From: a virus | Taxonomy: Duplodnaviria; Heunggongvirae; Uroviricota; Caudoviricetes | Length of the DNA stretch: 64,000 nucleotides | Reading direction: 5' to 3' (one strand) | IMG/VR virus record: IMGVR_UViG_2721755711_000002 | Shown here: piece by piece, positions 2,925 to 49,879 of the stretch | Layout: each line of letters starts with the position of its first letter | Position numbering within the stretch: position 1 is the first letter of the stretch | Notes under the pieces: model-generated | What the model was told of the DNA's origin: nothing | Database searches by the model: none | Seen by the model: only the letters and a program-made list of their open reading frames with translations | Made by a program: the position numbers and the translations under genes

Positions 2925-3030
2925 ATGCCCCAGACCACAGCGCAGACGCTCAACCAGCGCCCGTTCAATTTCAGTAATCAGAATGCACTGAACCGCCCCG
3001 GGTTTCCTGGAGAGTGTTTTATCTGTGAAC

Positions 3031-3922
3031 TCAGGCTGCCAGATCATCGTTTCCGATGGAAGCATAATAAGCTTTTTCTGCTTCTGCCGGTGGGATATGG
3101 CCCAGCCTTTCCAGCAATCGTCGATTGTTATACCAGTCCACCCACGTGAGTGTGGACAGCTCCACTTCTGTCCGGTTTTTCCAGCGCTTACGGTGTATTA
3201 CCTCCGCTTTGTAAAGGCCATTGATGCTTCTCCGCCATCGCGTTGTCATACGAGTCACCAGTACTCCCTGTTGATGCCAGTAAGCCGGCTTCCTTAAGCC
3301 GCTGCGTGTAGGCCAGCGATACATACTGAGAACCTTTATCACTGTGGTGGATTGTGCCGGACGGCCGACGGGCCCACAACGCCTGCTCCAGTGCATCCAG
3401 CACGAATGCCGTTTCCATGGATGATGAGACCCGCCATCCCACGATGTATCCGGCGAACACATCAATGATGAACGCCACATAAACGAAGCCCTGCCATGTG
3501 TTTACCCAGGTAAAATCAGCCACCCACAACTGGTCAGGACGTTCTGCCACGAACTGACGGTTTACGCGGTCGCATGCGGCAACGGCTTTCCGGCTGACGG
3601 TAGTGCGGACCTTTTTACCCCGGAGAACACCGGCAAGTCCCATAACCGCCATGAGACGTGCCACAGTGCATCTGGCCACTCTGATACCTTCCCGTAACAA
3701 CTGACGCCAGACTTTACGCACACCGTATACCTGGTGATTTTCATCGTATACGCGCTGTATCTCTTTCTTCAGCCAGTCATCGCGCTGCGCACGGGCACTG
3801 CGTTTATCAGGATGATGTCGCTGTTGCTGACAGTGGTAATACGTTGACGGGGCAATATGCAGTTCGCTGCATACCGGTCCGACCCCGTACTGCTCACGCA
3901 GCTTATCCAGCAGTGGCATCAT
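3031..3922 (-). pseudogene. IS3-family transposase OrfB (DDE catalytic subunit), disrupted by frameshift
   Basis: OrfB homology is split across two frames (3188..3922 and 3031..3480). The break is near 3228 where the sequence reads gag aag cat, versus gag agc atc expected for ...AMAESINGLYK..., consistent with a 1 bp insertion. Confidence 0.7.
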
Positions 3923-4245
3923 TTTTTCCAGAGGCGGTCGAACTCCGCCTTCGCAAAATAAGCGGAAGCCTGGCGAAGGATATCGTTACTGCGGCGCAGT
4001 TCACGATTTTCACGTTCCAGCTCTTTCAGACGCTGACGTTCAGCGGTGGTGAGCCCACCATCACCGCCCCCGGTATCCCGCTCATGCTGGCGAACCCAGA
4101 CACGCAGAGTCTCCGGCGTACAGCCAATTTTTGGGGCAATGGAACAAATTGCCGCCCACTGTGAATCATACTCATCCTGACTTTCCAGAACCATACGAAT
4201 CGCTCGCTGACGGACTTCGGGGGAAAAACGAGTATTTTTAGTCAT
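3919..4245 (-). CDS. IS3-family transposase OrfA (HTH DNA-binding subunit)
   Basis: 108 aa protein [22 protein letters not shown]... matches remembered IS629/IS1203 OrfA; SD GAGAAAGAGG upstream. Confidence 0.85.
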
Positions 4246-4270
4246 CCTGTTTACCTCTTTCTCAGGGAGT

Positions 4271-4723
4271 TTAGTCTCCAGGATTCCCGGGACGGTTCAC
4301 ACCTCCCCGCGTGGACTCACGCCCGAACTGACGGGAGCCGGAGCGGATACGCACCTGTGACGATGACTGGATCACACTGCCGGACGTATCCCGCCCGAGG
4401 TTGATTTGTCCTGCCGCGACTTTCTCCAGAAAGCGGATGGCGTCCCGGTAGCGCATCTGAATTTCTTCTGAGCAGATACGGTAATCGGTCGCCAGGTGAT
4501 AACGGGCGATATCGCAGCAGTAACCCACCAGAATCCCCGGGCTGTCAGGCCACGGGGTCCGGTAACGCCCCACCAGATAGCCATCAATCTGGGCACTGGC
4601 GCGTGCAAGCGCGGAGGCCAGCTTTTCTTCGTCGATGAATCCCGTCATGTCTTCATCCGTCAGTGTGCGTGCCTCGCGTTCACTGAACGCCCTGATGAAC
4701 TGTTCCGGTGTGGCGTAAGACAT
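4271..4723 (-). CDS. Mu gp36-like virion protein (DUF1320-like), C-terminus altered by IS insertion
   Basis: 150 aa ORF; its last 9 codons are encoded by the duplicated target and IS terminal sequence. Reconstructing the uninterrupted sequence gives a native ...STRGGAF stop ending. Confidence 0.5.
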
Positions 4724-16598: not shown

Positions 16599-17012
16599 TT
16601 ATTGTTTACGTGCTGCTCTGGCTCGTTTTCTGGCGTCTTTTGTCAGCGCCACCATCACCCCGAACAGTTGATCATCTGTCAGCCATTCGATCACATGTTG
16701 CTTATACATGTGAGATGCCAGTCCTTCCGCATACGCCCAGGAACGACCGGCATCAGCCAGCAACGCTTCAATTTTGGATAATACTGATTTTCTGCTCATT
16801 GCAACACGGGGGCGGCGACCTTTACCGGCGGGTGCCTTGCGCGGAAATCCCTGTTCGTGCATGTATTCCCGGATGATGCGCAGTTCATCAAGATTGCAAC
16901 GTGTGGTGCTGGTTTTACCTGTCAGGCGGGCCAGTGTCTGGCGATAAAGGGCATCATCCCACCCCAGATACGCCTGACCGGCTTTAATGGCCCCGATCAT
17001 CTTTTTCAGCAT
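16599..17012 (-). CDS. GemA-like protein (Mu gp16-like)
   Basis: ORF with start proposed at MLKKMIGAIKAGQ; located just upstream of Mor/C-like gene as gemA is in Mu. Confidence 0.5.
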   Translation of the reverse strand: MLKKMIGAIKAGQAYLGWDDALYRQTLARLTGKTSTTRCNLDELRIIREYMHEQGFPRKAPAGKGRRPRVAMSRKSVLSKIEALLADAGRSWAYAEGLASHMYKQHVIEWLTDDQLFGVMVALTKDARKRARAARKQ

Positions 17013-17262
17013 GTTTGTTATCCTCAAAACGCACGGTAAAACGTGAAACGCCAATCCCCGACAGGAACGCGGCGGCACGGTCAAGAGACAGCCACGTCTT
17101 GTAATCGCCACGGCGTTCCTGTAGAAAATAGGACACCCCGGCGCGGCGATTCACAGCGAAGAGGTGATACACACCACCGAACCGCTGCACGACGAACTCA
17201 TCCACGCCACCGCTTTCAGCCTGTTGCCTGAAAGCTGCCATTCCGATTTGTTCAATCTTCAT
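16984..17262 (-). CDS. hypothetical Mu-like early protein
   Basis: ORF starting at MKIEQIGMAAF, overlapping the gemA-like start. Confidence 0.3.
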   Translation of the reverse strand: MKIEQIGMAAFRQQAESGGVDEFVVQRFGGVYHLFAVNRRAGVSYFLQERRGDYKTWLSLDRAAAFLSGIGVSRFTVRFEDNKHAEKDDRGH

Positions 17263-17284
17263 AATGACCAAAACATCACTTTTG

Positions 17285-17312
17285 GCAGACCAAAACATAT
17301 GTTTTGGTCTGC
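17285..17312. promoter_or_regulatory. 28 bp perfect palindrome (candidate operator or bidirectional terminator)
   Basis: GCAGACCAAAACATATGTTTTGGTCTGC is perfectly self-complementary; the half-site GACCAAAACAT recurs directly at 17267..17278. Confidence 0.35.
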
Positions 17313-17516
17313 TGTTGGTTATTATTTAATTACTTTGCGTTAGTGTGATTCTTCCAGCGATTTTGGGCTGCGCTGGGCTTGTTAAGGGAACACATCACAA
17401 TATCAGCTGTGTTTGTGAACAAACCCATTCTGCGGTTACTGAGTTTTAGCCATTGCTGGACGCCGCGAGCGTTTCTACAGGTCAAAAGAATTTTTGCTTT
17501 ACGGTTTTTCATCTGA

Positions 17517-17825
17517 TTATTCTCCTGAAATCAGTCCTGAACGGATTACTGTTTTTGCAATATGCGCCCGTAATTGCTGCGTTCCGTGGTATTTGATTGC
17601 CACATCGCGTAATTTATTAACCAGCTCCCTGAGCTGATGCTCTTTTGCTCCCGGTGTCACCGGAATGATTCCTGCTCTCCGGTATTCCTGAAGCTCCAGC
17701 AGGGACTGCCGTAAGAGCGTCCACCACTCTCTGTCTACAATCGGCCCGCGCATATCAAGCATTTTGTCAGCATCGGCAATCAGTCTGGTCAGGCCCTTAT
17801 CGCTTATTCTGGTTTGCTGGTTCAC
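17517..17825 (-). CDS. hypothetical Mu-like early protein
   Basis: 102 aa ORF in a tight overlapping array of small genes. Confidence 0.3.
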   Translation of the reverse strand: MNQQTRISDKGLTRLIADADKMLDMRGPIVDREWWTLLRQSLLELQEYRRAGIIPVTPGAKEHQLRELVNKLRDVAIKYHGTQQLRAHIAKTVIRSGLISGE

Positions 17826-21931: not shown

Positions 21932-22171
21932 TCATTGCCATACGACGGTGCAGCCGTCGATACAGGATGTTTTCACCACGCGGCGCAGGCCGCTGAATGT
22001 CTGGATGATTTCCGTTACCGGCCATACAGGACCACCCACAGGCGGGCAGGCATAAACCACAGGTAAACGGTGATGTTGCCCCGTTACACGACCGCCGGTG
22101 GTGTGGATGGCCACACGGGCACGGGAACGGACGGCATTAATGGTCTGCTTTTCCATCATTTTGTTCTCCAT
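21932..22171 (-). CDS. hypothetical small early protein (Kil-position)
   Basis: 79 aa ORF immediately downstream of the B-like gene, where Mu carries kil. Confidence 0.3.
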   Translation of the reverse strand: MENKMMEKQTINAVRSRARVAIHTTGGRVTGQHHRLPVVYACPPVGGPVWPVTEIIQTFSGLRRVVKTSCIDGCTVVWQ

Positions 22172-23064
22172 CAGTGAATTAACATTTCTGAATATTTATC
22201 AATGGCCTGCACACTGACCGGTGCATCGCTGATATCACAAATCCGGTACACACCACGCGCCAGCTTGAACAGACGACGGGCATTACCCAGCGAACGTGTG
22301 TAAAGTGCCTCACCAATTTCCGGGTCCGCCGCTTCCGGCATCATGTCTGTGGCAATCTTGTTAAAATCTTCCTGCGTCAGCGTATCGCCCAGGTTAAGCG
22401 CCAGCGCCACGCGGCTGTATAATTGAGCGAACTCACCACAACGGCCCTTAAGGTTAATCAGAAGGTGAGGCATACCCGCCAGGACAATCCCGATACCCGC
22501 TTTGTCATGCAGACGGCGCAATACCTCCAGTGCACGATAGGGGAGCAGTTCAGCCTCATCCACCATCAGCAGACGACCTGACCCACGCAGTTCACGCACA
22601 CAGGCATCAATCTTCTCGCGAATATCGCCGTGAACCTTTATGCCCAACTGGCGGCACAGTTCATCGAGTAACTTTCTGGCCGTATAGCCAATATCGGCTT
22701 CAATGAGCACTACATCCCGGTTTCTGGCGGCATATTCACTCAGAATCATGCTTTTACCCAGGCCCGCCGCGCCATACAGAACGCAAATATCACACTCCAG
22801 ATGGGCGTAGGTCAGTACTTCCAGCCCTTTGGCAGCCATGCCGGTGGTGACAAATCGCACTTTAATACGGCGGTTGTTTTCCTTTTCCCATTCACGGGTC
22901 ACAAAGGCAGAAATGCGTTCTTCAATATCAGCCATATCGCCCTGATATTTGCCCTGCAAATACTGGTTGATAACAGCGCTGCTACGACCAATAGCACGGG
23001 CAACGTGGGTCTGCGTAAAGCCGCGACGGGCCATTACGTCATTTAATTGCGTAATTAAACTCAT
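22171..23064 (-). CDS. Mu B-like transposition target-capture ATPase (AAA+)
   Basis: 297 aa; N-terminal HTH-like segment followed by Walker A LYGAAGLGKS; directly downstream of the MuA-like gene. Confidence 0.8.
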   Translation of the reverse strand: MSLITQLNDVMARRGFTQTHVARAIGRSSAVINQYLQGKYQGDMADIEERISAFVTREWEKENNRRIKVRFVTTGMAAKGLEVLTYAHLECDICVLYGAAGLGKSMILSEYAARNRDVVLIEADIGYTARKLLDELCRQLGIKVHGDIREKIDACVRELRGSGRLLMVDEAELLPYRALEVLRRLHDKAGIGIVLAGMPHLLINLKGRCGEFAQLYSRVALALNLGDTLTQEDFNKIATDMMPEAADPEIGEALYTRSLGNARRLFKLARGVYRICDISDAPVSVQAIDKYSEMLIH

Positions 23065-23082: not shown

Positions 23083-25125
23083 TTAACGATTATTTGTGCC
23101 GTTTTTCTTTAAATTGCGCTCACGGTCAGACACGAATAAATAAAGTTCTTCTTTTTCCTTTTTCTCCTGGCGTTCCAGTCCATATCCCAGATTAAACTCA
23201 GGTTTCTGCGTAATAGCCGGGGTAAGTTCGCGTTTAGCCTCTTCGATTTTCTGCGTGGCCCGTGCAATGCGGCCTCGGGCGCGTTTCTCCTGCTGCTGTT
23301 CGATAACGGCTTTCGGGAACGCATCGACCTTGTTACCGTTCCAGATGGCATCGCAGATATAAGAACCGTCCATTCGCCTGACAATCACGCTGTTTGCGTC
23401 GTGAATGTCGTAACAAACCCTGACTTCATTTCCGTGCTCTGCTGCCAGTTCTGTGGAGAAATAGATGTTTCTGAATAACACCACTTCACCGCGTCGCACC
23501 GTGCAGATGCTTTCCGGTCGGAACATTTCATGCAGTTCTTCCGGCGACAGCATGTCGATTTCAGCCTTTTGCTCTTTTATCAGTTTCCGGCGATACGCTG
23601 CCGGGCTGTAATGTTCGCCATCCTCTTTGCGGGGAAGGCTGCTGTGTGGTCGGTTGTTATACCGTTTCACCTCCAGCTCTATTGCGGCCAGCAGTTGCTC
23701 AAAGGTGGGGACTTCTCCCATCGCTTTAACCTGCCGTTTTGTCAGCTCTTTCCCTTTGTGGGTGGCCTTAATGGCTGACTGTGTGATGCGTTGCTGCATC
23801 ATCACCGTTTCCTTGTCTGCATTTTTTGAGCAGTACGTCTGGAAACTCAGGGCCACATCTTTGGGTATTCCTTTGTTTGCCCGTTCTATTACCCCGCGCC
23901 CCTGCGGGTTACCAGGTATCCCCGTGTGATGCTCCACACCCAGTCGGGGCAGAATCCCGGTAATATCGGCATCAAGCACCCGGTTTTTTTCACCGCCCCC
24001 GTTATCGGAGTAATAAATCAGCGGTATTCCGTGTTGTGACATGCCATGACGCAATGCATCAGCAACGGCTATCACGTTCTCCGACAGGGACAGCGACCAG
24101 CCCACAATAAAGCGTTGCCCCGCATCCATAACCAGCGTCACTTCTGGCCGGAATGTATTCCCGGTGGCGGGGCTGAATGCCATCAGTTTCATACAGTGAC
24201 CATCCCCGACCCATACCGCATTAACCGGTAATGTGCTCCAGTCGCGCCGCACAAAGGGATTGAGCGAACGCCAGGCTGAACCGGTGGAGCGGAAACGCTC
24301 CTTCACAATCACCGGGACGTTGCTTAACACCCGTCTTACTGCGTGAACTGAAGGCAGTGCTGCCAGCATTCCTGCGTCATTCGCGTGCTTTTCATGCCAC
24401 CAGGCTGAAAACTCGCGATACGCATATTCAACGGTCGGGCGCTTCCATGAGCGATAGAACATAAAGAAATCGCTCAACCACCAGACCTGCTCCCACGGTG
24501 TTCCCTTATGATGACCGGGAGCCAGTAACGCCAGTAACTGATTGGCATCACCGCGCGCCATCAACCAGGCGGAATACCATTCCTGCAAACTTCCCCAACT
24601 GACGCCAGTTCGCTTACCCTGTCTGGCGTTTGCAGTGCCTGCGGCCTCAATAATGCGGTCAGGTAACGCCCCCATGCGCACACCATCAATGATGTGTTTT
24701 ACTGCTGCCGTCCTGGACATTCCTGCGTATTCACGCAGTTTATGCACTTCGGTAGCCAGCAATATCCGCGCATCAGCGATGGCCTTTTGCTTGTCGGTCA
24801 GTGCCTGAACTTCGCGTAATGCCAGTTCCGGGCATTTGACCATCACTTCCAGTTCATCGCGAACGGTGACGTTTTTAACTGCCTTCTGCTCAACCACGGC
24901 GGGCAGTTGCGCATCTTCCAGAACCTGATGAGTCAGGCGCTTACGTAAAACTTTCTGCGCTTCAGTGGGCAGGCAGTCGATGTGATACTCGAATGCTTTG
25001 GTGCCTTCACGCTTGCGCTTCCATTCCGGGTGCGTCTCTGTGATCCGATTGAGCGTCCAGCGCACCCCCTGAACTGTACCGGGCAAACCAGGAAGACCGG
25101 CCAGCTCATTGGCTGAATAAAACAT
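23083..25125 (-). CDS. Mu-type DDE transposase (MuA-like)
   Basis: 680 aa ORF between ner-like and B-like genes; size and organisation as Mu A. Confidence 0.8.
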   Translation of the reverse strand: MFYSANELAGLPGLPGTVQGVRWTLNRITETHPEWKRKREGTKAFEYHIDCLPTEAQKVLRKRLTHQVLEDAQLPAVVEQKAVKNVTVRDELEVMVKCPELALREVQALTDKQKAIADARILLATEVHKLREYAGMSRTAAVKHIIDGVRMGALPDRIIEAAGTANARQGKRTGVSWGSLQEWYSAWLMARGDANQLLALLAPGHHKGTPWEQVWWLSDFFMFYRSWKRPTVEYAYREFSAWWHEKHANDAGMLAALPSVHAVRRVLSNVPVIVKERFRSTGSAWRSLNPFVRRDWSTLPVNAVWVGDGHCMKLMAFSPATGNTFRPEVTLVMDAGQRFIVGWSLSLSENVIAVADALRHGMSQHGIPLIYYSDNGGGEKNRVLDADITGILPRLGVEHHTGIPGNPQGRGVIERANKGIPKDVALSFQTYCSKNADKETVMMQQRITQSAIKATHKGKELTKRQVKAMGEVPTFEQLLAAIELEVKRYNNRPHSSLPRKEDGEHYSPAAYRRKLIKEQKAEIDMLSPEELHEMFRPESICTVRRGEVVLFRNIYFSTELAAEHGNEVRVCYDIHDANSVIVRRMDGSYICDAIWNGNKVDAFPKAVIEQQQEKRARGRIARATQKIEEAKRELTPAITQKPEFNLGYGLERQEKKEKEELYLFVSDRERNLKKNGTNNR

Positions 25126-25361
25126 TACGCCGCCTTACTGGCATACCGGCTTGGCCAGATCTCCGCAGGTTCCACACCAATAGCATCGGCTATGATGCGT
25201 TCATATTTAGGGCATGAGCGATACAGTGCATTTTTTAAAGAGTCTTTTTTTAGACCAGCGCGTTCAGAAAGTTCACGCAATGTAAAACCTTTGGTGTGCA
25301 CAGCGGCAACGATGTACTCGCGGTGCCAGTCTTTGTTCATTACTTCATTTCTAACCATCAT
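25125..25361 (-). CDS. ner: Ner-like DNA-binding regulator
   Basis: About 78 aa from internal ATG; C-terminal ...IADAIGVEPAEIWPSRY... closely resembles remembered Mu Ner (...ANALETKPEVIWPSRY...). Confidence 0.7.
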   Translation of the reverse strand: MMVRNEVMNKDWHREYIVAAVHTKGFTLRELSERAGLKKDSLKNALYRSCPKYERIIADAIGVEPAEIWPSRYASKAA

Positions 25362-25543: not shown

Positions 25544-26191
25544 ATGACAAAAAATGATGACGCTTTTTCTTTAGTTGACCGAGGAAAAGAAAGTTTTAGA
25601 GAGCGTTTAGTAAAACTAATAGGTGGGCGCAGTGTCAGAACTGCCGCGAGCGACTGGGGTATCCCTCCTTCAACCTTAAACAACTACATCCATAAAGGAA
25701 CAGAACCCTCTTTTAAAATAGCCTGCCTTATCTCAGATAAAGAGCGGGTGAGTTTAAATTGGCTCGCTTATGGTGAGGAACTCACCGCCACAGCAAACTC
25801 TTTATCAAACCAAACAGCGCAGCCTTCTCCCGATATTACAAACGAGCTAGCTAACGAGTTATTGAAAAGAGCGTCCACAGAAGATAAAGAACTATTGATA
25901 AATGCAATATGTGATATGGGTATCAAAGGAATCCTAAAACGTCTGCAACAACCCACTAGGCAAGCGAAACAAGCCGCTAACACGCTGGAGGAGCAAGAGA
26001 ATGCTATCCAAAGTCTGAATATCAGGAAATCACTTAAGGATGCAATCCGAGTAGCATTACATGGAAACGAAGATACTGACAGAGAGATTTTGCGAATTGT
26101 TGAATCTCATATACGACCACAATCGCCGGGTGATCAGACCGATGTCACACCGGAGCAAGAAACAAAATCTGTAAGTAAAAAATCAGCATGA
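25544..26191 (+). CDS. prophage repressor (HTH, XRE/CI-like)
   Basis: 215 aa from ATG 25544 (SD AGGAAAGGAAAA); N-terminal HTH-like segment (...RTAASDWGIPPSTLNNYIHKG...VSLNWLAYGE); divergent from ner-like gene. Confidence 0.55.
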   Translation: MTKNDDAFSLVDRGKESFRERLVKLIGGRSVRTAASDWGIPPSTLNNYIHKGTEPSFKIACLISDKERVSLNWLAYGEELTATANSLSNQTAQPSPDITNELANELLKRASTEDKELLINAICDMGIKGILKRLQQPTRQAKQAANTLEEQENAIQSLNIRKSLKDAIRVALHGNEDTDREILRIVESHIRPQSPGDQTDVTPEQETKSVSKKSA

Positions 26192-26479
26192 ACGCCTCGT
26201 TTTGGCGGGGCGCATGCTGCTAACTAATCAGCAACAACCACATCAAAACAAAACCAAACAGGAAAAATAAGGAAACGGGTACAGATAAAGCCCGTTTTAA
26301 AAGCATTTAAAACACGATCAATTATCTGCCATTAATGATTAAAACAGTCCAGATTTGAGCGCAAAAAAATGTACTTTTGATCATTTTCTTCAAAACGATC
26401 CAGAATCGGTAAAATCTCTCACATCCTGCGCCACTCAAGGCTTATAGGCTCGTCCAGGCTGTTCTCACTCAGTCCAGAA

Positions 26480-26755
26480 TTGATCACTACCCCACAGGTA
26501 ACAGAAGACGGTCGTCATGTTGAGGAAGTGCATGTCCTGGGGGATATGTACCGCCTGGAGTTCTATCCGCGTAACACTCATCTTGCAGCGAAGATTGAGT
26601 ATTGCCGGGACGGGAATATTCCGTGCATTCCTGTAGAAAAAGAGGATGAAGCCTACATCATCACACTGAACGGTGACACGGCGCGTTGTATCTGTCGTGG
26701 CGACAGTGAAGCCCGGAATGAAATAGCAAGATGTCGCGCCCATACAGATAAATAA
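26480..26755 (+). CDS. hypothetical ORF, possibly a 3' gene fragment truncated by the Mu-like insertion
   Basis: ORF begins only with a TTG call immediately outside the Mu-like end, without a convincing SD; followed by a strong terminator. Confidence 0.25.
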   Translation: MITTPQVTEDGRHVEEVHVLGDMYRLEFYPRNTHLAAKIEYCRDGNIPCIPVEKEDEAYIITLNGDTARCICRGDSEARNEIARCRAHTDK

Positions 26756-26826: not shown

Positions 26827-27009
26827 ATGGAGAAGTATAAACGAATTCTGTTTAGGTTGACTATGAAAAACGGCCTTGAATTGAAAGCGCCTGTAACTGA
26901 TGACATCAGCAGAGCGGTGGCTTTTGCCATTAAGTGGGTGGCTGTCGGTATCGCTGTGTCTCCGATTCTGTATGGGATGGCAAAATTGATCATTGCTGTG
27001 AAATCGTAA
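26827..27009 (+). CDS. small C-terminally membrane-anchored protein
   Basis: 60 aa; strong SD AAGGGAGA; C-terminal hydrophobic helix. Confidence 0.4.
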   Translation: MEKYKRILFRLTMKNGLELKAPVTDDISRAVAFAIKWVAVGIAVSPILYGMAKLIIAVKS

Positions 27010-27027
27010 GTGGGGCAGGGGTAAATA

Positions 27028-27161
27028 TGTCAGATAGCATTATAAAACTGGCGCGAATTCTCTGTGTGGTTGTTGGCCTTTCATTTTCAGCAATGTTGGT
27101 TGCCATTTTCATTTCCACCGCCTGGCGAGTATTGAGCTTATCCGGATTGATTGGTGGATAG
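27028..27161 (+). CDS. small hydrophobic membrane peptide
   Basis: 44 aa, almost entirely one transmembrane helix; SD-like GGGG upstream. Confidence 0.3.
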
Positions 27162-27165
27162 TGAG

Positions 27166-27348
27166 ATGAAGCGAAAACACTGGACACACAGAATGCCGCG
27201 AACGGCGGCGAAATGGGTACTGGTAGCGATACTGGTGCCTTTTTTCCTGGTGGGATGCGTCAGCCTGGATAAGGCGCGCCAGCTTTTCGATACGGCTTCT
27301 CAGGTCTGCGAAATTGTCGACGGTGTTCGACAGTGTCTGCAGAGCTGA
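27166..27348 (+). CDS. small lipoprotein, paralog of 14162..14344
   Basis: 60 aa; HWTHR motif, lipobox LVGC, conserved QLFD...VC.I.DG.RQC core shared with the Mu-like copy. Confidence 0.5.
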   Translation: MKRKHWTHRMPRTAAKWVLVAILVPFFLVGCVSLDKARQLFDTASQVCEIVDGVRQCLQS

Positions 27349-27510
27349 TCGCCCGTAAGAGCAGAATATTTTGCTGAAAAATGAAGGATGTGTCAGCGTC
27401 CGGAAAGCATGAAATTCTGCTGCGTGTACCAATTTTATCTTATTCATTCTAAATCTTGCCGAATCAAGCAACTGCCCGGGCGGCAAGGGGTATTTTTATC
27501 CGGAGGGGAT

Positions 27511-27735
27511 ATGAAGAGATTACTGGTAACCGTAAAGCCCTTTAACGGAACGATTCCATTCAGGGTTTTGCAGCGTGGACGTGTTCTGGTTAAGGATATC
27601 TTCAGTGGTAAATGCACGGAATGTTATTCCCGGACATATGAAGTGGATGCCACGGATGAAGAAATTTCTGTTGAATGTGATCTGAACGCGAATATGGCGG
27701 GGATTGTAACAGCCACGTTGTTGCCGGTTTCATGA
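27511..27735 (+). CDS. hypothetical small protein
   Basis: 74 aa from ATG 27511 with SD GGAGGGG. Confidence 0.35.
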   Translation: MKRLLVTVKPFNGTIPFRVLQRGRVLVKDIFSGKCTECYSRTYEVDATDEEISVECDLNANMAGIVTATLLPVS

Positions 27736-27777
27736 ATGACATAGAATGTCTCCGGGTACCCAAAAGGAGAACACTAT

Positions 27778-27991
27778 GTTTGTAGAAAATAACCTGAAGG
27801 CTGATCCTGATAATCAGGGATGGGTTCTGGGTTGGGCTGTAGTACGTGACAAACCGTGGCATCTGGTCGGTATTTATGCGACGGAGGATGGCGCAAAGTC
27901 TAAACGCTCTGAATTGAATGGGGAGTATGAAGTTCGTTATGGTTCCCATCGTTTAGGTAGTGATGATTTTATGTCTGTCGGACTTAGCTAA
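27778..27991 (+). CDS. hypothetical small protein
   Basis: 71 aa from ATG 27778 with SD AAGGAGA. Confidence 0.35.
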
Positions 27992-28052
27992 CTGGCTGTG
28001 ATGCCTGTTTGTAGCCCCGCAAATGCGGGGCTTTTTATATTTGGAGACGATA

Positions 28053-28445
28053 ATGAAAAAAACAGAAAATAAACCGGTTGCAATTGGTGCCGCTGTTGTT
28101 CCGTTTAAGTTTGAGTTGTCTCAACTGGTGGAGATGCGCATCAGTGATGAATGGGGTGAGGTTAAAGCCCGCGCGCAGTATGCGGATGGCGAAAACCAGT
28201 ACTTGATCCACTACAAGGCTGCTGATGGTCGCGCCACAACGGCGTGGTTTGGTGAGTCAATGCTGGAAGCAACAGAAGATGATCGCCATCCGGGCTGTCC
28301 GGTATTTGCCGGTATGAAATTACCGGAAGGCGCAGTTGAACTGCAGCCGGGTGAGGTGTTCGTAATGTCAGAAGTCATTGATGGCAAACCGCAGTATTCA
28401 CGTATTGAAACTAACGGCAAGGACGTTTGTCTGGTTCGCAAGTAA
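28053..28445 (+). CDS. hypothetical protein
   Basis: 130 aa from ATG 28053 with SD GGAGA; followed by a hairpin. Confidence 0.4.
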   Translation: MKKTENKPVAIGAAVVPFKFELSQLVEMRISDEWGEVKARAQYADGENQYLIHYKAADGRATTAWFGESMLEATEDDRHPGCPVFAGMKLPEGAVELQPGEVFVMSEVIDGKPQYSRIETNGKDVCLVRK

Positions 28446-28479: not shown

Positions 28480-28841
28480 GATAATGTGAGAAATAAAAAA
28501 CCGGTCACAGGGAGCAGCTACACAGAACCGGCCGGCGAAGACCGCCAATACCACCCATGCTTCAGTAAAACATGCATATGACATTAGCTGGTATTGATGT
28601 AAATGCAATGTTACGCATCGACAAAAATAAAAAACCGGCAGGGGAAATCCATGGAAGATTTGCCGGTGGCAAAAGTTGCCAATGCTTTTATAACCGTAGT
28701 CGCAGAGTTGCGGAGTGCAACTACGAATGCTGCAGGTATATGGCTGAATGGCGTTTCAATGATGTACGTCATCTTATCTGTAAATGTTAATGATAAACGC
28801 TCCCATTTGTGCGGGTCCTTTCCGGGAGTTGAAACACCGGG

Positions 28842-28882
28842 GGTCATGGGACGCGCAAAAACGCGCTATTTATGAAAATTTT
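28842..28882 (+). other. cos site (cosN-like cohesive-end region) of the lambda-like packaging module
   Basis: CTATTTATGAAAATTTT (28866..28882) is identical to the segment immediately right of cosN at the phage lambda left end as I recall it; lies about 185 bp upstream of the Nu1-like start as in lambda. Nick positions not determined. Confidence 0.5.
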
Positions 28883-29027
28883 TCGAGTTCCACTTCCGGT
28901 TTTTTAATTATCTAACCAATTGATTAGATTGTTTTTAGTTATCAAGAAAACCGGAAGTCCGACCAGTTTGTGGGAAAATAGCGGCAAAAACGGAGTTGAG
29001 TGTAAAGTGAACAGCTAAAGAGGGTGT

Positions 29028-29537
29028 ATGGCAACGCAGGCGGAGGTAGCCGAGCATCTTGGTATAACTGAACGCTGGTTGCGGGATCTTCAGAAGCACC
29101 CGGGAGCGCCAAAAAATCGAAAGCGTGGTGAATACGATATTGATGCCTGGCGATATTTTTATATTTCATACCTTAAACGCAAAGGAAGAAGCGATACTGA
29201 TGACGATGGAAATAGCGATTACGAAGAAAAATTACTTATCGCCAGATGGAAATTGACTGAAGAACAGGCAATAGCACAGCAATTAAAAAATCAGGTAACC
29301 GAAGGCAAGCTCATTGATTCTGGGTTCTGCGTTTTCGCTCTCAGCAAACTGGCGATGGCATTGTCCAGTACGCTTGATTCCATTCCTTTATCCATGCAGC
29401 GACAGTTCCCGGATTTAACCCCGCGTCATATCGATTATCTGAAAACCCTTATCGCAAAAGGCGCGAATCAGTGTGCGCGGACAGGGGATAAATTGCCGGA
29501 GTTACTCGATGAATATATCCGAACTACAGCTGAATAA
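29028..29537 (+). CDS. nu1: terminase small subunit (lambda Nu1-like)
   Basis: 169 aa; ...FCVFALSKLAMALSSTLDSIPLSMQRQFPDLTPRHIDYLK... parallels remembered lambda Nu1 (...FCTFVLSRIAGEIASILDGLPLSVQRRFPELENRHVDFLK...). Confidence 0.8.
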   Translation: MATQAEVAEHLGITERWLRDLQKHPGAPKNRKRGEYDIDAWRYFYISYLKRKGRSDTDDDGNSDYEEKLLIARWKLTEEQAIAQQLKNQVTEGKLIDSGFCVFALSKLAMALSSTLDSIPLSMQRQFPDLTPRHIDYLKTLIAKGANQCARTGDKLPELLDEYIRTTAE

Positions 29538-31425
29538 TATGATGGCTGCTGTTTCAGTTGCGCTGCAGCCTCTGGTCAGGGTTGTACCGATGACGGCAGT
29601 TGAATGGGCTGATCAAAATTATTATCTGCCTAAAGAATCGTCATACGGTGATGGGGAATGGAAAACACTGCCGTTCCAGGTCGCCATTATGAACAGCATG
29701 GGGCACGACAGGATCCGCACTGTTAATCTGATTAAATCGGCGCGTGTGGGTTACACCAAAATGCTGCTGGGCGTGGTCGGGTATTTTATTGAGCATAAAT
29801 CCCGTAACAGCCTGCTCTTCCAGCCGACAGATTCCGCAGCTGAAGATTTTATGAAAGCGCATGTGGAAGCAACGCTCCGGGATGTCCCCAGCCTTAAAGC
29901 GTTATCGCCATGGCTGGGCAGAAAACATCGTGACAACACACTCACTCTGAAGCGTTTTTCCTCCGGCGTGGGGTTCTGGTGCCTGGGGGGTGCCGCTGCT
30001 AAAAACTACCGTGAAAAATCAGTGGATGTGGTCTGCTATGACGAACTCTCCTCGTTTGAACCGGATGTGGAAAAGGAAGGCTCGCCAACGCTGCTTGGCG
30101 ATAAACGTATCGAAGGTTCGGTATGGCCTAAATCCATACGCGGCTCAACGCCAAAAATTAAAGGTTCCTGTCAGATTGAAAAAGCCGCGAACGAATCTGC
30201 ACATTTTATGCGGTTTTATGTGCCATGCCCTCATTGTGGTGAAGCCCAGTATCTTAAGTTTGGCGATGATGCGACAACCTTTGGCCTGAAATGGGAGAAG
30301 GGTAAACCGGAAACGGTGTATTACCTGTGTGAACATAATGGCTGTGTGATCCGGCAGTCGGAGCTTGACCAGACCGACGGGCGCTGGATTTGTGACAATA
30401 CCGGGATGTGGACGCGTGACGGCCTGGCATTTTACAGCGCCGGTGATGAGGAGATGCCGCCACCGCGCTCAATCACGTACCACGTGTGGACAGCGTACAG
30501 TCCGTTCACCACCTGGGTACAGATTGTTTATGACTGGCTGGATGCGCTGAAGGATCCGAACGGTGTCAAGACGTTTATTAACACCACGCTCGGGGAGCCC
30601 TATGAAGAGGCCGTGGCAGAAAAACTGAGCTTTGAGTTGTTGCTGGAAAAAGTCTGCCACTATGATGCGCAGGTTCCCCTGCGGGTGGTTTACCTGACTG
30701 CCGGGATCGACTCCCAGAAAGATCGCTATGAAATTTATGTCTGGGGCTGGGCTCCCGGCGAAGAAGCCTTTCTGATTGACAAGCAAATTATCATGGGGCG
30801 ACCGGAGGACGAGGACACCCTTAAACGTGTTGATGCGGTGATCCGGAAAAAATACCGCCATGCTGACGGTACTGAAATTTCCATTTCCCGCGTCTGCTGG
30901 GATACCGGTGGTATCGACCAGGACATTGTGTATCAGCGTTCCAGGAAACACGGCACTTTTTTTGTGCTTCCCATAAAAGGGGCATCGGTGTATGGCAAGC
31001 CGGTGATCACCATGCCCAAAAAGCGCAACCAGCGTGGTGTGTTTTTGTGTGAGGTGGGCTCCGATACCGTCAAGGAAATGCTGTACGCCCGTTTTGCCCT
31101 GCCGGTGGTTTCTGCCAGTGAAGCAGCCCCGTATACCTTCCGTTTTCCGGATAACCCGGACATTTTTTCGGAAGAAGAGGCGCGTCAAATCGTAGCGGAA
31201 GAACTGGTGGAAAAGGTGGTTAACGGCAGGGTGAAACTGCTGTGGGATAAAAAAGGGCGACGCAACGAAGCCCTCGACTGCCTGGTATATGCTTATGCCG
31301 CCCTGCGCGTTTCGGTACAGCGGTGGCAACTGGACCTTGAAGCGCTGGCGAGGGCACGAAGAGATGAGCAGGATGAGGATGATATGAGCATGGAAGAGAT
31401 CGCGGCTGCACTGAGTGGAGGATAA
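29509..31425 (+). CDS. A: terminase large subunit (lambda gpA-like)
   Basis: Start MNISELQL...; ...TAVEWADQNYYLPKES..., ...WPKSIRGSTPKIKGSCQIEKAA..., ...CPHCGEAQYLKFGD... track remembered lambda gpA; overlaps Nu1 end as in lambda. Confidence 0.85.
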   Translation: MNISELQLNNMMAAVSVALQPLVRVVPMTAVEWADQNYYLPKESSYGDGEWKTLPFQVAIMNSMGHDRIRTVNLIKSARVGYTKMLLGVVGYFIEHKSRNSLLFQPTDSAAEDFMKAHVEATLRDVPSLKALSPWLGRKHRDNTLTLKRFSSGVGFWCLGGAAAKNYREKSVDVVCYDELSSFEPDVEKEGSPTLLGDKRIEGSVWPKSIRGSTPKIKGSCQIEKAANESAHFMRFYVPCPHCGEAQYLKFGDDATTFGLKWEKGKPETVYYLCEHNGCVIRQSELDQTDGRWICDNTGMWTRDGLAFYSAGDEEMPPPRSITYHVWTAYSPFTTWVQIVYDWLDALKDPNGVKTFINTTLGEPYEEAVAEKLSFELLLEKVCHYDAQVPLRVVYLTAGIDSQKDRYEIYVWGWAPGEEAFLIDKQIIMGRPEDEDTLKRVDAVIRKKYRHADGTEISISRVCWDTGGIDQDIVYQRSRKHGTFFVLPIKGASVYGKPVITMPKKRNQRGVFLCEVGSDTVKEMLYARFALPVVSASEAAPYTFRFPDNPDIFSEEEARQIVAEELVEKVVNGRVKLLWDKKGRRNEALDCLVYAYAALRVSVQRWQLDLEALARARRDEQDEDDMSMEEIAAALSGG

Positions 31426-31428
31426 AGG

Positions 31429-31638
31429 ATGGTTTATACGCATGAAATGCTTTGCGAGGCGCGTCGGGCATTACATGAACTGATGATCGGGCGTGCTGTG
31501 GTTTCTGTCGGCAGGAACGGACGGCAGGTTCAGTATTCGCGTGCGACGATTGGTGAACTGCGGCAATACATTGAAGAGCTGGAGAGTGCGCTGGGCGTGT
31601 CCGGACGGCGTCGCGGTCCGGTGGGAGTGAGACTGTGA
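31429..31638 (+). CDS. W: head-tail joining protein (lambda gpW-like)
   Basis: 69 aa; ...ARRALHELMIGRAVVSV...RRRGP... resembles lambda gpW. Confidence 0.7.
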   Translation: MVYTHEMLCEARRALHELMIGRAVVSVGRNGRQVQYSRATIGELRQYIEELESALGVSGRRRGPVGVRL

Positions 31639-33206
31639 ATGTGGAGTTGATAGATGTTCACGGACAGCCCCTGCGACAGAGTATGGGATATTCCGGTGGC
31701 GGCTCCGGATTTGGTGGGCAGCTTGCGGAATGGTTACCTGCACCAGAAAGTGCCGACGTGGCGCTCTTACCTTCCATTCATCTGGGTAACGCCCGCGCGG
31801 ATGATCTGGTCCGTAATAATGGCATTGCCGCGAATGCTGTGGAAATTCATAAAGACCATATCGTCGGGCATATGTTTCGTCTGAGTTATCGCCCCAACTG
31901 GCGCTGGCTGGGGATGTCGGAAGCAGATTCACATGCTTTTATTGAAGATGTTGAGGCGGCGTGGATGGAATACTGCGATCCGGTGTTTGGTACGATGGAT
32001 GTGGAAGGGCGTCGTTCGTTTACCGAATTCATTCGTGAAGGGGTGGGTGTCCATACTTTTAATGGAGAAATTTTTGTCCAGCCTGTATGGGATGCGGAAT
32101 CCACGTCATTATTCCGGACGAAATTCAAAACCATCAGCCCGAAGCGTGTCAGTACACCCGGTTATGGTACCGGCGATCGTTTTATGCGTGCCGGGGTGGA
32201 AATAAACCGACACGGAAAAGCGCTGGCCTACCATGTTCAGGATGATGACTGGCCCGGCTACGGTGTCAGTAAATGGACACGAATTACGGCAACACTGCCT
32301 TCCGGACGACCGGGAATGATCCATGTGTTTCAGCCACAGGAAGACGGGCAGACCCGCGGGGCCAACCAGTTTTATTCTGTAATGGAGCGTCTCAAGATGC
32401 TCGACACACTGCAGGCCACGCAACTGCAGTCGGCGGTGGTTCGCGCCATGTATGCCGCCACGATTGAATCCACACTGGATTCGGAAAAAGCGTTTGAATA
32501 TATCGCCGGGGTGGGAGATGGAGGTAAAAATCCCCTGAACACCATCATGAAAGGCTACGCGCGTTATTACGCCACCAATACGGTAAAACTGGGCGGGGTC
32601 CGTATTCCGCATCTTTACCCGGGAGATTCACTGAATCTGCAGACAGCCCAGAATGCGGATAATGGTTTTTCTGAACTGGAAAAGGCGCTGTTACGTTACA
32701 TTGCTGCCGGACTGGGTGTGTCGTATGAGCAGCTTTCCCGGGATTATTCACAGGTCAGTTATTCCAGTGCCAGGGCATCCGCCAATGAGTCGTGGCGGTA
32801 TTTTATGGGAAAACGAAAATTTGTGGCCAGTCGCCTGGCGTCACAGATGTTTGCCTGCTGGCTGGAGGAAGCCCTTATTCGTGGTGTGATCCGTCCGCCG
32901 AAATCCCGTTTCTCATTCTGGGAGGCTCGTTCCGGGTGGTGCCGTGCCGAGTGGATTGGTGCCGGTCGTATGGCGATTGATGGCCTTAAGGAAGTGCAGG
33001 AAGCGGTGATGCGCATTGAAGGCGGCCTGAGTACATACGAGAAAGAGCTGGCCCTGATGGGGGATGACTATCAGGAGATTTTCCGCCAGCAGCTACGGGA
33101 AACTCAGGAGCGACAGGCTGCCGGTCTTCCGCGTCCGGTCTGGATAAAGGACGCGTTTCAACAGCAGATCCGACAGACAACGGGAGAAAAAGGCGATGCG
33201 CTGTAA
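31635..33206 (+). CDS. B: portal protein (lambda gpB-like)
   Basis: 523 aa ORF following W-like gene, overlapping start/stop; lambda head gene order. Confidence 0.8.
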   Translation: MNVELIDVHGQPLRQSMGYSGGGSGFGGQLAEWLPAPESADVALLPSIHLGNARADDLVRNNGIAANAVEIHKDHIVGHMFRLSYRPNWRWLGMSEADSHAFIEDVEAAWMEYCDPVFGTMDVEGRRSFTEFIREGVGVHTFNGEIFVQPVWDAESTSLFRTKFKTISPKRVSTPGYGTGDRFMRAGVEINRHGKALAYHVQDDDWPGYGVSKWTRITATLPSGRPGMIHVFQPQEDGQTRGANQFYSVMERLKMLDTLQATQLQSAVVRAMYAATIESTLDSEKAFEYIAGVGDGGKNPLNTIMKGYARYYATNTVKLGGVRIPHLYPGDSLNLQTAQNADNGFSELEKALLRYIAAGLGVSYEQLSRDYSQVSYSSARASANESWRYFMGKRKFVASRLASQMFACWLEEALIRGVIRPPKSRFSFWEARSGWCRAEWIGAGRMAIDGLKEVQEAVMRIEGGLSTYEKELALMGDDYQEIFRQQLRETQERQAAGLPRPVWIKDAFQQQIRQTTGEKGDAL

Positions 33207-34812
33207 TTTATCACATATTGCCGCGATGGCATTTAATGAGCCGCTTTTACTGGAACCCGCCTATGCGCGGGTTTTCTTTTGCGCACTGGGTAAGGAAATT
33301 GGGGCGGGCAGCCTTGCCGTTCCGCAGCAGGCCGTTCAGCTTGATGCCGATGGTATGCAGCTGGCGGTTACCGATTATATGACTGGTGGTCCGCGTCCGG
33401 TAAAGAGTTACCAGGTGAAAAATGGTATTGCCATTCTGCCGGTGAGCGGCACGCTGGTACATAAAATGGGCACCCTGCGGCCATATTCCGGTATGACCGG
33501 TTATGACGGTCTGACTGCCCGTCTTAAGTCAGCGGTGAACGACCCGGATGTACGCGGCATTTTACTGGATATCGACAGTCCGGGCGGTCAGGCTGCCGGG
33601 GCGTTTGACTGTGCTGACATGATTTACCGTCTGCGGGAACAGAAGCCCGTGTGGGCGCTGTGTAATGACATGGCCTGTTCAGCCGCCATGTTGCTGGCGG
33701 CGGCCTGTACGCGTCGGCTGGTCACGCAGACGGCAAAAATTGGTTCGATTGGTGTGATGATGGCGCACACCAGTTACGAGAAACAACTGGCACAGGAAGG
33801 CGTGGATATCACGCTGATTTACTCCGGGCAGCACAAGGTTGACGGCAACAGTATTCAGGCGTTGCCGACAGGTGTGCGTGCGGATTTTCAGCGCCGTATT
33901 GATGAGGCCCGCCGGATGTTTGTCGACAAGGTGGCACTTTATACGGGGCTGAGTTCAGCGGTGGTGATGAATACCGAGGCTGCCGTTTATGACGGTCAGG
34001 CAGGCATTGATACAGGCCTGGCTGATCAACTGATTAATGCTGCAGATGCCGTTGATGTAATGGTTTCTGCTCTGAACGACTCTGTTACACAGGAGAATAC
34101 GATGACAACAAAAAATCTCACCGTTGCTGAAGCGGTGTCCCAGGAAAATCAGCGCGTGATGGGGATCCTGAATTGTCAGGAGGCGAAAGGACGCGAAAAA
34201 CTGGCGCAGATGCTGGCAGGTCAGCAGGGAATGTCAGTTGAGCAGGCAAAAACATTACTGGCGGCAGCACCGGTTGCCGGTACTGACAGCACAGGCGATC
34301 AGATTGTGGCACTTCCGGAAGCAAAAGGACGTGAACAACTGGCACGGACGCTGGCTGAACAGCCGGGAATGACGGTGGAGCAGGCGAAAACGTTACTGGC
34401 AGCGGCACCGATTGCCGGTGCGGCAAGTACCGGCGAGCAGATTATGGCACTTCCGGAAGCAAAAGGGCGTGAACAACTCGCACAGGCGCTGGCTGAACAG
34501 CCGGGAATGACTGTGGAACAGGCGAAAATGCTACTGGCAGCGGCACCGGCAACCGGTACGGCAAGTACCGGCGATCAAATTATTGCGTTGCCGGAAGCAA
34601 AAGGACGCGAAAAACTGGCACAGGCGCTGGCCGAACAGCCGGGAATGACAGTGGAGCAGGCGAAAACACTGCTGGCAGCTGCGCCATCAGTATCGCAACC
34701 GTCACAGGTAACACTTTTTGAGCGCTTCATGGCACAGCATGCCGCCAGTGCCGTTTCCGGTGGCGGAACTGCCGGGAACGGGGAAGAAGAACTGCTGATG
34801 AGTATGCCGTAA
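33196..34812 (+). CDS. C: prohead protease / scaffold (lambda gpC/Nu3-like, S49 family) with expanded C-terminal repeats
   Basis: 538 aa; N-terminal half in the ClpP/S49 position; C-terminal half has four tandem 46 aa repeats. Confidence 0.75.
   Translation: MRCNLSHIAAMAFNEPLLLEPAYARVFFCALGKEIGAGSLAVPQQAVQLDADGMQLAVTDYMTGGPRPVKSYQVKNGIAILPVSGTLVHKMGTLRPYSGMTGYDGLTARLKSAVNDPDVRGILLDIDSPGGQAAGAFDCADMIYRLREQKPVWALCNDMACSAAMLLAAACTRRLVTQTAKIGSIGVMMAHTSYEKQLAQEGVDITLIYSGQHKVDGNSIQALPTGVRADFQRRIDEARRMFVDKVALYTGLSSAVVMNTEAAVYDGQAGIDTGLADQLINAADAVDVMVSALNDSVTQENTMTTKNLTVAEAVSQENQRVMGILNCQEAKGREKLAQMLAGQQGMSVEQAKTLLAAAPVAGTDSTGDQIVALPEAKGREQLARTLAEQPGMTVEQAKTLLAAAPIAGAASTGEQIMALPEAKGREQLAQALAEQPGMTVEQAKMLLAAAPATGTASTGDQIIALPEAKGREKLAQALAEQPGMTVEQAKTLLAAAPSVSQPSQVTLFERFMAQHAASAVSGGGTAGNGEEELLMSMP
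34176..34727 (+). repeat. four tandem in-frame 138 bp repeats inside the protease/scaffold gene
   Basis: Repeat unit EAKGRE.LA..LA.Q.GM.VEQAK.LLAAAP.AG..STG.QI.ALP; anchors at about 34183, 34320, 34458, 34596. Confidence 0.75.
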
Positions 34813-48566: not shown

Positions 48567-48590
48567 TGTTTTCTGAATCAGGAAATAAAA

Positions 48591-49226
48591 ATGTCTGTAT
48601 TAATTTCGGGTGTGCTGACGGATGGCGCGGGACTCCCCATGTCCGGATACCATATTATTCTGAAAGCCAGACAGAATACATCCGCAGTGGTCATGAGAAC
48701 GGTGGCTACAGTGATGACAGGTCCGGCAGGAGAATATGCTTTTGAAGCTCAGACCGGAAAATATGACGTTTATCTTCGGTCGTGTATTGAAAGGGAATAC
48801 TGTGTCGGTGATATTTCGGTTTACGACGACTCAAAGCCCGGCACGCTGAACGACTTTTTGACCGCTCTCGACGAAGGCGACCTCAAACCCGACGTGGTGA
48901 AACGCTTTGAGGAAATGGTGGCGCAGGCGCAGCAGGGTGCCGAAACTGCAACAGAAAGCGAACGACAGGCAGGGCAACATGCAGACGCTGCCGCCCGGGC
49001 AAAAGAAGATGTAAAAAAACTGGTGGAAGGTGTTCAGCAGAACGCCGACGCGGTTGCGGAGGGTAAACAACAGGCCGAAACTCTGGTCTCACAGGTTGAG
49101 GATACCGCCGCAGAGGTCAGGCAGGATGCTGAAGCCGCGAAAAAGGCCGCATCTGATGCAGAGCATGTCAGGGAGGATATTGACACTGCGTTATCTGCGA
49201 CACTGAAAACGGCGAATCGCCTGTAA
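48591..49226 (+). CDS. side tail fibre N-terminal domain protein (Stf N-terminal fragment)
   Basis: 211 aa; ...ISGVLTDGAGLPMSGYHIILKAR...GKYDVYL...VYDDSKPGTLNDFLTA...PDVVKRFEEMV... parallels remembered lambda Stf N-terminus; stop codon lies in the junction core. Confidence 0.6.
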   Translation: MSVLISGVLTDGAGLPMSGYHIILKARQNTSAVVMRTVATVMTGPAGEYAFEAQTGKYDVYLRSCIEREYCVGDISVYDDSKPGTLNDFLTALDEGDLKPDVVKRFEEMVAQAQQGAETATESERQAGQHADAAARAKEDVKKLVEGVQQNADAVAEGKQQAETLVSQVEDTAAEVRQDAEAAKKAASDAEHVREDIDTALSATLKTANRL

Positions 49227-49271
49227 ACGATTCGCCGTTTTCAGTGTCGCAGATAACGCAGTATCAATATC
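49176..49271. repeat. near-palindromic junction: 44 bp inverted arms (35 bp perfect, then one mismatch) around an asymmetric 8 bp core CCTGTAAA
   Basis: 49188..49219 is the exact reverse complement of 49228..49259; arms continue as roughly 630 bp diverged inverted homologs (the two Stf N-terminal genes). Confidence 0.9.
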
Positions 49272-49856
49272 TGCTCTGGCCTGCTCTGCACCGGATGCGG
49301 CCTTTTTCGCGGCTTCAGCATCCTGCCTGACCTCCGCGGCGGTATCCTCAACCCGTGAGGCCAGATTTTCGGCCTGTTGTTTACCCTCCGCAACCGCGTC
49401 GGCGTTCTGCTGAACACCTTCCGCCAGTTTTTTTACCTCTTCTTTTGCCCGGGCGGCAGCGTCTGCATGTTGCCCTGCCTGTCGTTCACTTTCTGTTGCA
49501 GTTTCCGCGCTCTGCTGCGCCTGCGCCACCATTTCCTCAAAACGTTTCACCACGTCGGGCTTGAGGTCGCCTTCATCGGGGGCGGTCAGAAAATCATTCA
49601 GTGTGCCGGGCTTTGAGTCGTCGTATACAGCAATATCTCCAACACAGTACTCGTCGCGCCAGCCCTGCTTCAGATATACGCAGTATTTTCCGGTCTGCGC
49701 CTCAAAACAGTACTCGCCACAGTTTCCTGTCACCACGTCGGCAACTGTGCGCATCACCACCTCTGAGGTGTTTACCCGGGATTTCAGAATTATGTGGCAT
49801 CCGGACATGGGGATGCCTGCGCCATCAATCAGCGCACCTGATATCACTACAGACAT
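49191..49856 (-). CDS. side tail fibre N-terminal domain protein (second, diverged Stf N-terminal fragment)
   Basis: 221 aa, similar along its whole length to 48591..49226 (roughly 85 to 90 percent by eye); reads through the junction core and ends 10 codons into the opposite arm. Confidence 0.6.
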   Translation of the reverse strand: MSVVISGALIDGAGIPMSGCHIILKSRVNTSEVVMRTVADVVTGNCGEYCFEAQTGKYCVYLKQGWRDEYCVGDIAVYDDSKPGTLNDFLTAPDEGDLKPDVVKRFEEMVAQAQQSAETATESERQAGQHADAAARAKEEVKKLAEGVQQNADAVAEGKQQAENLASRVEDTAAEVRQDAEAAKKAASGAEQARADIDTALSATLKTANRLQAIRRFQCRR

Positions 49857-49879
49857 AGTTTTTCTCGCGATAAATTAAA

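Follow-up and report, generated by a model that had tools for sequence, protein, structure and literature searches.

A Mu-like prophage terminus within the late region of a phiP27-like prophage: probable nesting by transposition

In the stretch of viral DNA studied here (64,000 nucleotides of the record IMGVR_UViG_2721755711_000002, Caudoviricetes; hereafter the window), a Mu-like prophage gives way to genes of the kind found in the right arm of a cos-type lambdoid prophage, which raises two questions, namely at which base the one element ends and by what process the two came to be joined. We addressed these by comparing both sides of the joint with related prophages, with intact versions of the interrupted region and with insertions of the same family elsewhere.

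The Mu-like part of the window runs from the repressor-side terminus through the tail sheath and the next gene, and its principal features are the following.

1-26496, minus strand: Mu-like transposable prophage, partial (colinearity with relatives and Pfam families)
691-2112: tail sheath of the Mu-like prophage (ORF listing and look-ups)
22171-23064, minus strand: MuB-like AAA+ ATPase, 297 aa (69.9 bits to PF13401 AAA_22, 26.7 bits to TniB; located as in relatives)
23083-25125, minus strand: DDE transposase, 680 aa (PF02316 HTH_Tnp_Mu_1 and PF09299 Mu-transpos_C)
25125-25361, minus strand: Ner-like small HTH protein, 78 aa (in L009-L017 the gene in this place matches PF13693 HTH_35)
25544-26191, plus strand: repressor, 215 aa, pointing away from ner-A-B and towards the terminus
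26192-26496, minus strand: repressor-side (attL-like) terminal region, reading inward 5'-TGTGGGGTAGTGATCAATTCTGGAC

The A and B genes are both full length. The two transposase families scored well above threshold (41.8 bits against a cutoff of 23.3 for PF02316 and 57.7 bits against 21.7 for PF09299), with the rve core at 23.3 bits, under its cutoff of 32.6. This whole part is colinear at 90-97% with two complete Mu-like prophages (L007 and L008), and two further loci, L003 and L004, which were taken from the sheath gene with 10-kb flanks and stop about 1 kb before the far terminus (the one to the left of the window), are 99.6-99.8% identical to it. Precomputed Pfam hits on L003 and L004 comprise Portal_Mu, Phage_Mu_F, Mu-like_gpT, Gp36, Gp37 and the sheath, so that the Mu-type late genes (portal, gpF, protease, gpT capsid, gp36/37, sheath and the gp45-48 baseplate genes) are present in these loci. 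The tape measure, baseplate and fibre genes and the other terminus are estimated to lie to the left of the window, in some 10-11 kb. Because relatives are 35.2-35.7 kb long and the window carries extra sequence, we put the complete element at about 37 kb, a 1.3-kb insertion sequence (IS) included.

That IS is a 1311-bp IS3-family element of the IS629/IS1203-like type (2989-4299, minus strand; NCBIfam transpos_IS3 at 249 bits), which sits at the gp36/gp37 boundary, has inverted ends (TGAACCGCCCCGGG and CCCGGGACGGTTCA) and is flanked by a 3-bp duplication, CAC. Its orfB is split by a frameshift. The IS is absent at gp36/gp37 from all relatives examined (L003, L004, L007 and L008), no record was found for the chimeric IS/Mu-like ORFs at 2328-3065 and 4271-4723, and the insertion probably impairs expression of the Mu-like tail genes, a likely polar effect. 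Counting the IS, three levels of nesting are seen at this locus, an IS within a Mu-like prophage within a lambdoid prophage.

The sequence-only reading had let the repressor gene end at 26191, as it does, and had the Mu-like sequence stop near 26402 or 26423. The second of these placements proved wrong. Using a query that starts at window position 23000, we found that relatives in complete Escherichia coli genomes align as far as query positions 3496-3501, equivalent to 26495-26500 of the window. In nine insertions with an identical repressor 304-305 of the final 305 nucleotides agree with the window, and all nine diverge right after CCCCACA, and six further, more distant insertions break at the base equivalent to 26496. 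The element thus ends at 26496 with ...GATCACTACCCCACA, its terminal CA occupying 26495-26496, and each of the 15 other insertions, lying in a different E. coli context, diverges straight after that CA. The insertion sites are unrelated (16 contexts when the window is included), and the coincidence of 15 independent contexts breaking at one base goes far beyond chance. The homology limits and the 15 divergence points together set the boundary at 26496/26497, which is 73-94 bp to the right of the two earlier positions and just beyond the span flagged at that time (to 26480). The earlier ends were misplaced because they fall at and just past the second copy of a repeat, aaTTCTGGAc, of which the terminal region holds three copies.

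26472-26479: first copy, 18 nt inside the terminus
26398-26405: second copy, reading aTTCTGGAt, 92 nt inside the terminus
26347-26354: third copy, 143 nt inside the terminus

These copies are putative transposase sites. The termini have the form 5'-TG...CA-3', with TGTGGGG... at the repressor end when read inward and TGTAAC... at the other end, as known from relatives.

In the assembly collection 173 blocks encode exactly this repressor, and the nine listed represent nine different E. coli chromosomal sites. Together with the fused proteins described below, these sites show what appears to be an actively and near-randomly transposing family. Matches in 58 complete E. coli genomes place members of the family in up to two places per genome.

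On the other side of the joint, homology to intact lambdoid prophages begins at 26497. From this base the window is colinear with three uninterrupted relatives, namely prophages of E. coli R1 (L001, 94.7%), PSS-15 (L002, 97.4%) and GCA_002971095.1 (L030, about 98%), so that the alignment of the sequence beyond the terminus to lambdoid prophages, which had been proposed as a check, came out in favour of a lambdoid right arm. In all three the empty site reads straight through as ATGTACGCACTCAAGAAAATCAC followed by GGTAACAG (also quoted as ...AAAATCAC followed by GGTAACAG), or by codon ATG TAC GCA CTC AAG AAA ATC AC/G GTA ACA GAA, where the stroke marks the insertion point. The following features lie between the joint and the terminase genes.

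26497-26755, plus strand: insertion target, the 3' remnant of a 93-aa gene (aligned to L001 5981-6262 and L030 7977-8258)
26827-27009, plus strand: small protein of 60 aa with a hydrophobic C-terminus (translation)
27027-27161, plus strand: small membrane protein of 44 aa (translation)
27166-27348, plus strand: lipobox protein of 60 aa, ..FFLVGC.. (LVGC; translation)
27511-27735, 27776-27991 and 28053-28445, plus strand: three hypothetical phage genes (annotated in L001 and L002)
about 28778-28940, plus strand: lambda-like cos segment (aligned locally with lambda NC_001416, its two ends joined)
29028-29537, plus strand: Nu1-type small terminase (PF07471 at 72 bits, cutoff 30; phrog_57 and phrog_1790)

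The remnant keeps the last base of codon 8 and codons 9-93 and has neither a start codon nor a ribosome-binding site. The intact gene is phrog_33497 (function unknown), has no Pfam family and, in uninterrupted relatives, starts 375 bp downstream of the stop codon of the endolysin gene, the endolysin being of the GH108 type in L001, L002 and L030 and of the M15 type in some others. The three small genes at 26827-27348 match PHROGs of unknown function and are found as the same genes in intact relatives. The order first described from the sequence, in which a start-less ORF, small membrane and lipoprotein genes, a cos site and Nu1 follow the Mu-like end, is therefore upheld by the translations, the cos alignment and the PF07471 match. 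The proposed insertion into the lysis/right-arm region holds as far as the late region is concerned and fails for the lysis genes themselves, the target being the 93-aa gene.

The cos segment has CGGGTCCTTTCCGG and CGCTATTTATGAAAATTTT in common with lambda, and the putative cosN core (28830-28860) reads GGGACGCGCAAA as against GGGCGGCGACCT in lambda, so the cohesive-end sequence is probably different from that of lambda. Beyond Nu1 the head module (gpW, portal B, protease C, gpD-like, gpE-like and FI) is present, its identification resting on Pfam families in L028-L037, which are 97-98% identical and colinear.

29509-31425, plus strand: gpA large terminase (PF05876/PF20454)
31429-31638, plus strand: gpW (Pfam on L028-L037)
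to 33206, plus strand: portal (Pfam on L028-L037)
33196-34812, plus strand: S49 protease (Pfam on L028-L037)

A reading of the tail genes in the window gave no lambda-type non-contractile tail; the tail of the resident prophage is contractile, with a sheath (42605-44164), a GPD-like protein and a P2 GpU. Only the packaging and head genes of the prophage are thus lambdoid, as in phiP27-like phages, whose layout it shares: holins, endolysin, small genes, cos, Nu1/A, a lambda-type head and a contractile tail. In uninterrupted relatives the Q antiterminator and the lysis cassette lie upstream of cos in one late operon. Segments of the post-lysis region are 94% identical to the Stx2e phage phiP27 (NC_003356.1), which itself shares only 18% of a 3.1-kb query, and the closest uninterrupted relative is not phiP27 but the prophage in GCA_002971095.1, at 98%. 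One draft E. coli genome, GCA_029407585.1, contains both a Mu-like prophage with the identical repressor (L010) and an uninterrupted prophage with the identical Nu1 (L028), and both partners of the nest therefore co-occur un-nested in nature.

Towards the right end of the window a further joint is seen. An inverted repeat of about 640 nt at 48584-49863, whose inner 425 nt are 92% complementary around an 8-nt spacer, consists of two 'prophage tail fibre N-terminal' fragments placed head-on (48591-49226 on the plus strand and 49191-49856 on the minus strand), both lacking the C-terminal parts found in full-length relatives. The match to another prophage's tail module begins exactly at 49221, and from there to 64000 the minus strand carries tail and baseplate genes of yet another myovirus-type prophage, a third one distinct from the others; this module includes baseplate J, an LprI-family protein and an antirepressor and is 98% identical to E. 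coli F2_407_2_2. The joint at 49.2 kb has the look of a place where two convergent prophages were brought together by rearrangement or deletion.

Returning to the joint at 26496/26497, we consider it very probable that DDE transposition carried a transposable Mu-like prophage into a phiP27-like prophage already resident, because a transposon end, exact to the base, meets the inside of a late gene without homology at the joint. The earlier proposal that the Mu-like phage transposed into a pre-existing lambdoid prophage is thus well supported, by one exact junction at which a TG...CA-type end is set against internal lambdoid sequence. Integration of the lambdoid phage as the origin of the junction was rejected on the same evidence. 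The boundary might in principle be a joint of two phage genomes made by mosaic recombination and not a transposition end, as lambdoid phages are highly mosaic and module boundaries lie nearby (at about 27419-28037 and at 28826); this we regard as the least probable account of all, and effectively refuted by the 15 insertions in unrelated host genes that break at the same base. The terminus moreover carries the putative transposase-site repeats, and alignment to the intact genes shows the lambdoid gene to be cut in the middle of a codon, with no homology at the joint.

An assembly artefact, in which a repeated Mu-like prophage led to a wrong join in the contig and the Mu-like body comes from a copy elsewhere, is also very improbable. 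It is true that the family is repetitive and mobile and that draft assemblies often break at or near this locus. A mis-join would however still need a genuine Mu-like end against 26497, so the nested insertion would be real in any case, and the Mu-like part holds unique markers, the IS at 2989-4299 and the particular repressor allele, within continuous sequence.

In insertion by transposition the same short target sequence is expected at the other end of the element, and we looked at the length of this duplication in related insertions. Six complete insertions in complete genomes could be read at both ends, and in 6/6 the element, TGTAACTTCGCG...CACTACCCCACA, is flanked by a direct repeat of 4 bp.

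L005: in scpC, duplication GATA
L006: in eutC, duplication AGTG
L007: in a myovirus prophage, duplication TTCG
L008: in a DLP12-like lambdoid prophage, duplication CGTA
L040/L041: melR-melA intergenic, duplication TCTC
L042/L043: trg-ydcA intergenic, duplication CAAA

In all six pairs the fifth base mismatches whichever way the boundary is shifted, and a 5-bp duplication with shifted element boundaries is ruled out as no shift reconciles all six. The flanks of the insertion in E. coli E2348/69, mapped on an intact eutC (L011), cover 16928-17227 and 17224-17523 and so overlap by 4 bp (17224-17227). The sequence-only reading had assumed a duplication of 5 bp, which the six insertions and the mapping on an empty site show to be mistaken for this family; anyone looking for 5-bp repeats would discard even a simple insertion in error, because the family duplicates 4 bp. 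Target duplications of 5 bp for Mu and of 6 bp for B3 are on record (PMC8705779), and a paper on C. rodentium mentions only direct repeats of 3-7 bp. In the literature searched we found no report of a 4-bp duplication by a Mu-like phage. The group may therefore use a transposase with a 4-bp target stagger, perhaps one not previously described, although we put this forward as a tentative suggestion and think it somewhat less probable than its opposite.

By the 4-bp rule the bases GGTA at 26497-26500 (plus strand) are a predicted copy of the target duplication. Since the family makes a 4-bp duplication, GGTA is expected on both sides, and the partner junction should read ...AATCACGGTA followed by TGTAACTTCGCG (also written ...AAAATCACGGTA followed by TGTAACTTCGCG). 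A simple insertion further predicts the holins and the endolysin gene, about 375 bp beyond it, then ...CTCAAGAAAATCACGGTA (in longer form ...ATGTACGCACTCAAGAAAATCACGGTA) directly before TGTAACTTCGCGTTTTTTTCTGG. The partner junction, sought as AAAATCACGGTA and TGTAACTTCGCG with none or one nucleotide between them, had no match in viral, genome and metagenome collections. This null result is uninformative because the known junction of the window, GATCACTACCCCACAGGTAACAGAAGACGG, is absent from the same collections. For the junction ORF (possible starts TTG 26480, GTG 26528 and ATG 26546) the only matches were to the 93-aa gene, either intact or at the edge of a contig.

We also ran a profile search of a protein collection with the fusion ORF predicted over the other junction (MYALKKITV joined to CNFAFFSG...). 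It gave 84 hits, and the ten that were read, none of them starting MYALKKITV, all proved to be fusions in which another host gene runs into the right end of the Mu-like element. These hits read ...CNFAFFSGLI[DG]AQFW... and come from sources including E. coli, Salmonella enterica and Escherichia sp. Such fused proteins are annotation artefacts, yet they are also a ready-made census of independent insertion sites and a sign of how prolific the family is. The Mu-like lineage is widespread in E. coli and appears to occur in Salmonella as well.

With the other end outside the window, the structure may be less simple than one insertion, in that the junction at 26496/26497 is real and was followed by an adjacent deletion or inversion, through replicative transposition or recombination between Mu-like copies, so that the other Mu-like end borders on unrelated DNA, and the lysis and early regions of the lambdoid prophage are lost or moved. 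We hold this to be unlikely, if less so than a mis-assembly. Adjacent deletions and inversions are known from the biology of transposable phages such as Mu, a genome may hold more than one copy of the family (up to two places), and the window has a second prophage rearrangement in the head-on tail-fibre junction at 49.2 kb. On the other hand, all six of the related insertions checked at both ends are simple, with a 4-bp duplication, and no sign of rearrangement was seen at 26496/26497 within the window.

The Mu-like element shares with Mu a repressor that points away from ner-A-B, followed in order by Mor, lysis genes, the Mu-type portal, gpF, gpT, sheath and baseplate genes, and likewise TG...CA ends, a repressor end with three repeated sites and a near-random choice of insertion site. 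It differs from Mu in the target duplication of its family, 4 bp as against 5 bp. No DNA similarity to Mu was found, and the transposase shows no more than marginal similarity to MuA (E=3e-4 to structure 4FCY). Its identity is 50% to the transposase of Pseudomonas phage VW-6B, about 31% to those of D3112/JBD-type phages and 32% to that of RcapMu, and by these sequence comparisons it is closer to all of these than to MuA.

The closest named relative, at 88% identity, is the Mu-like prophage of EPEC E2348/69 (NC_011601.1, about 2,715,935-2,751,670, in eutC). The elements of E2348/69, TUM1881, JNE21-009 and Z1324SEC0014 are 88-91% identical to the window from the transposase to the terminus and agree with it in termini (TGTAACTTCGCG...CACTACCCCACA) and in gene order. 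They differ in having another repressor/end allele (170-209 of the last 305 nt identical) and other insertion sites, and lack the IS at the gp36/gp37 boundary. Those of Z1324SEC0014 and JNE21-009 are likewise nested in prophages. One nested copy (L008, NZ_CM135183.1 2833182-2868849, duplication CGTA) lies within a DLP12-like lambdoid prophage, with ninE and ybcO on its two sides and an IS903B next to it; another (L007, NZ_AP041814.1 1143534-1178770, duplication TTCG) is set in a myovirus prophage, where it separates DNA-circularisation from baseplate genes.

Mu-like phages have also been described in Stx phages and other mobile elements of CC119 STEC, where 6/10 were located in mobile elements (Nakamura et al. 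2023, PMC10132054). As here, these are transposable Mu-like prophages nested within an E. coli lambdoid prophage, and they differ in being Sp18-like and in the host prophage and insertion site. The Stx1a phage LC727895.1 in GenBank is annotated with a 'region of the inserted Bacteriophage Mu-like phage' and matches the transposase region of the window at 66% over 370 nt only.

For an insertion of the Mu-like prophage by transposition, the steps would be as follows. Transposase bound at the repeated aaTTCTGGAc sites would join the two 3'-CA ends to target phosphates, which in this family would be staggered by 4 bp and not by the 5 of Mu, and repair of the gaps would then duplicate GGTA. The lambdoid late operon would thereby be split, with Q, the holins and the endolysin beyond the Mu-like DNA and with cos, terminase, head and tail on this side, and some 37 kb of Mu-like DNA in the opposite orientation would lie between the two halves. 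The cos-to-cos length would be about doubled in comparison with a genome of the size of phiP27 (42.6 kb). Packaging by lambda-type terminases is limited to about 75-105% of unit length. Because of the doubled cos-to-cos length, the lambdoid phage would be stranded, its complete genome no longer being packageable if the packaging rules of lambda apply.

Nesting of this kind is in itself ordinary and already documented in STEC, and the present case is useful mainly as annotation. Only the consistent 4-bp duplication may be new and, if unreported, it could be of interest to transposition specialists; if the 4-bp stagger is true, the group offers a naturally occurring variant in which to study how stagger length is fixed in Mu-type transpososomes. 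For prophage annotation nested elements matter since automated tools merge or mis-bound them. Insertion between the lysis genes and cos should fix the remaining lambdoid genes in the chromosome, and if the stranding holds, the nest is a clear, base-resolved case of one prophage inactivating another. Such events also bear on the question why many E. coli prophages are defective.
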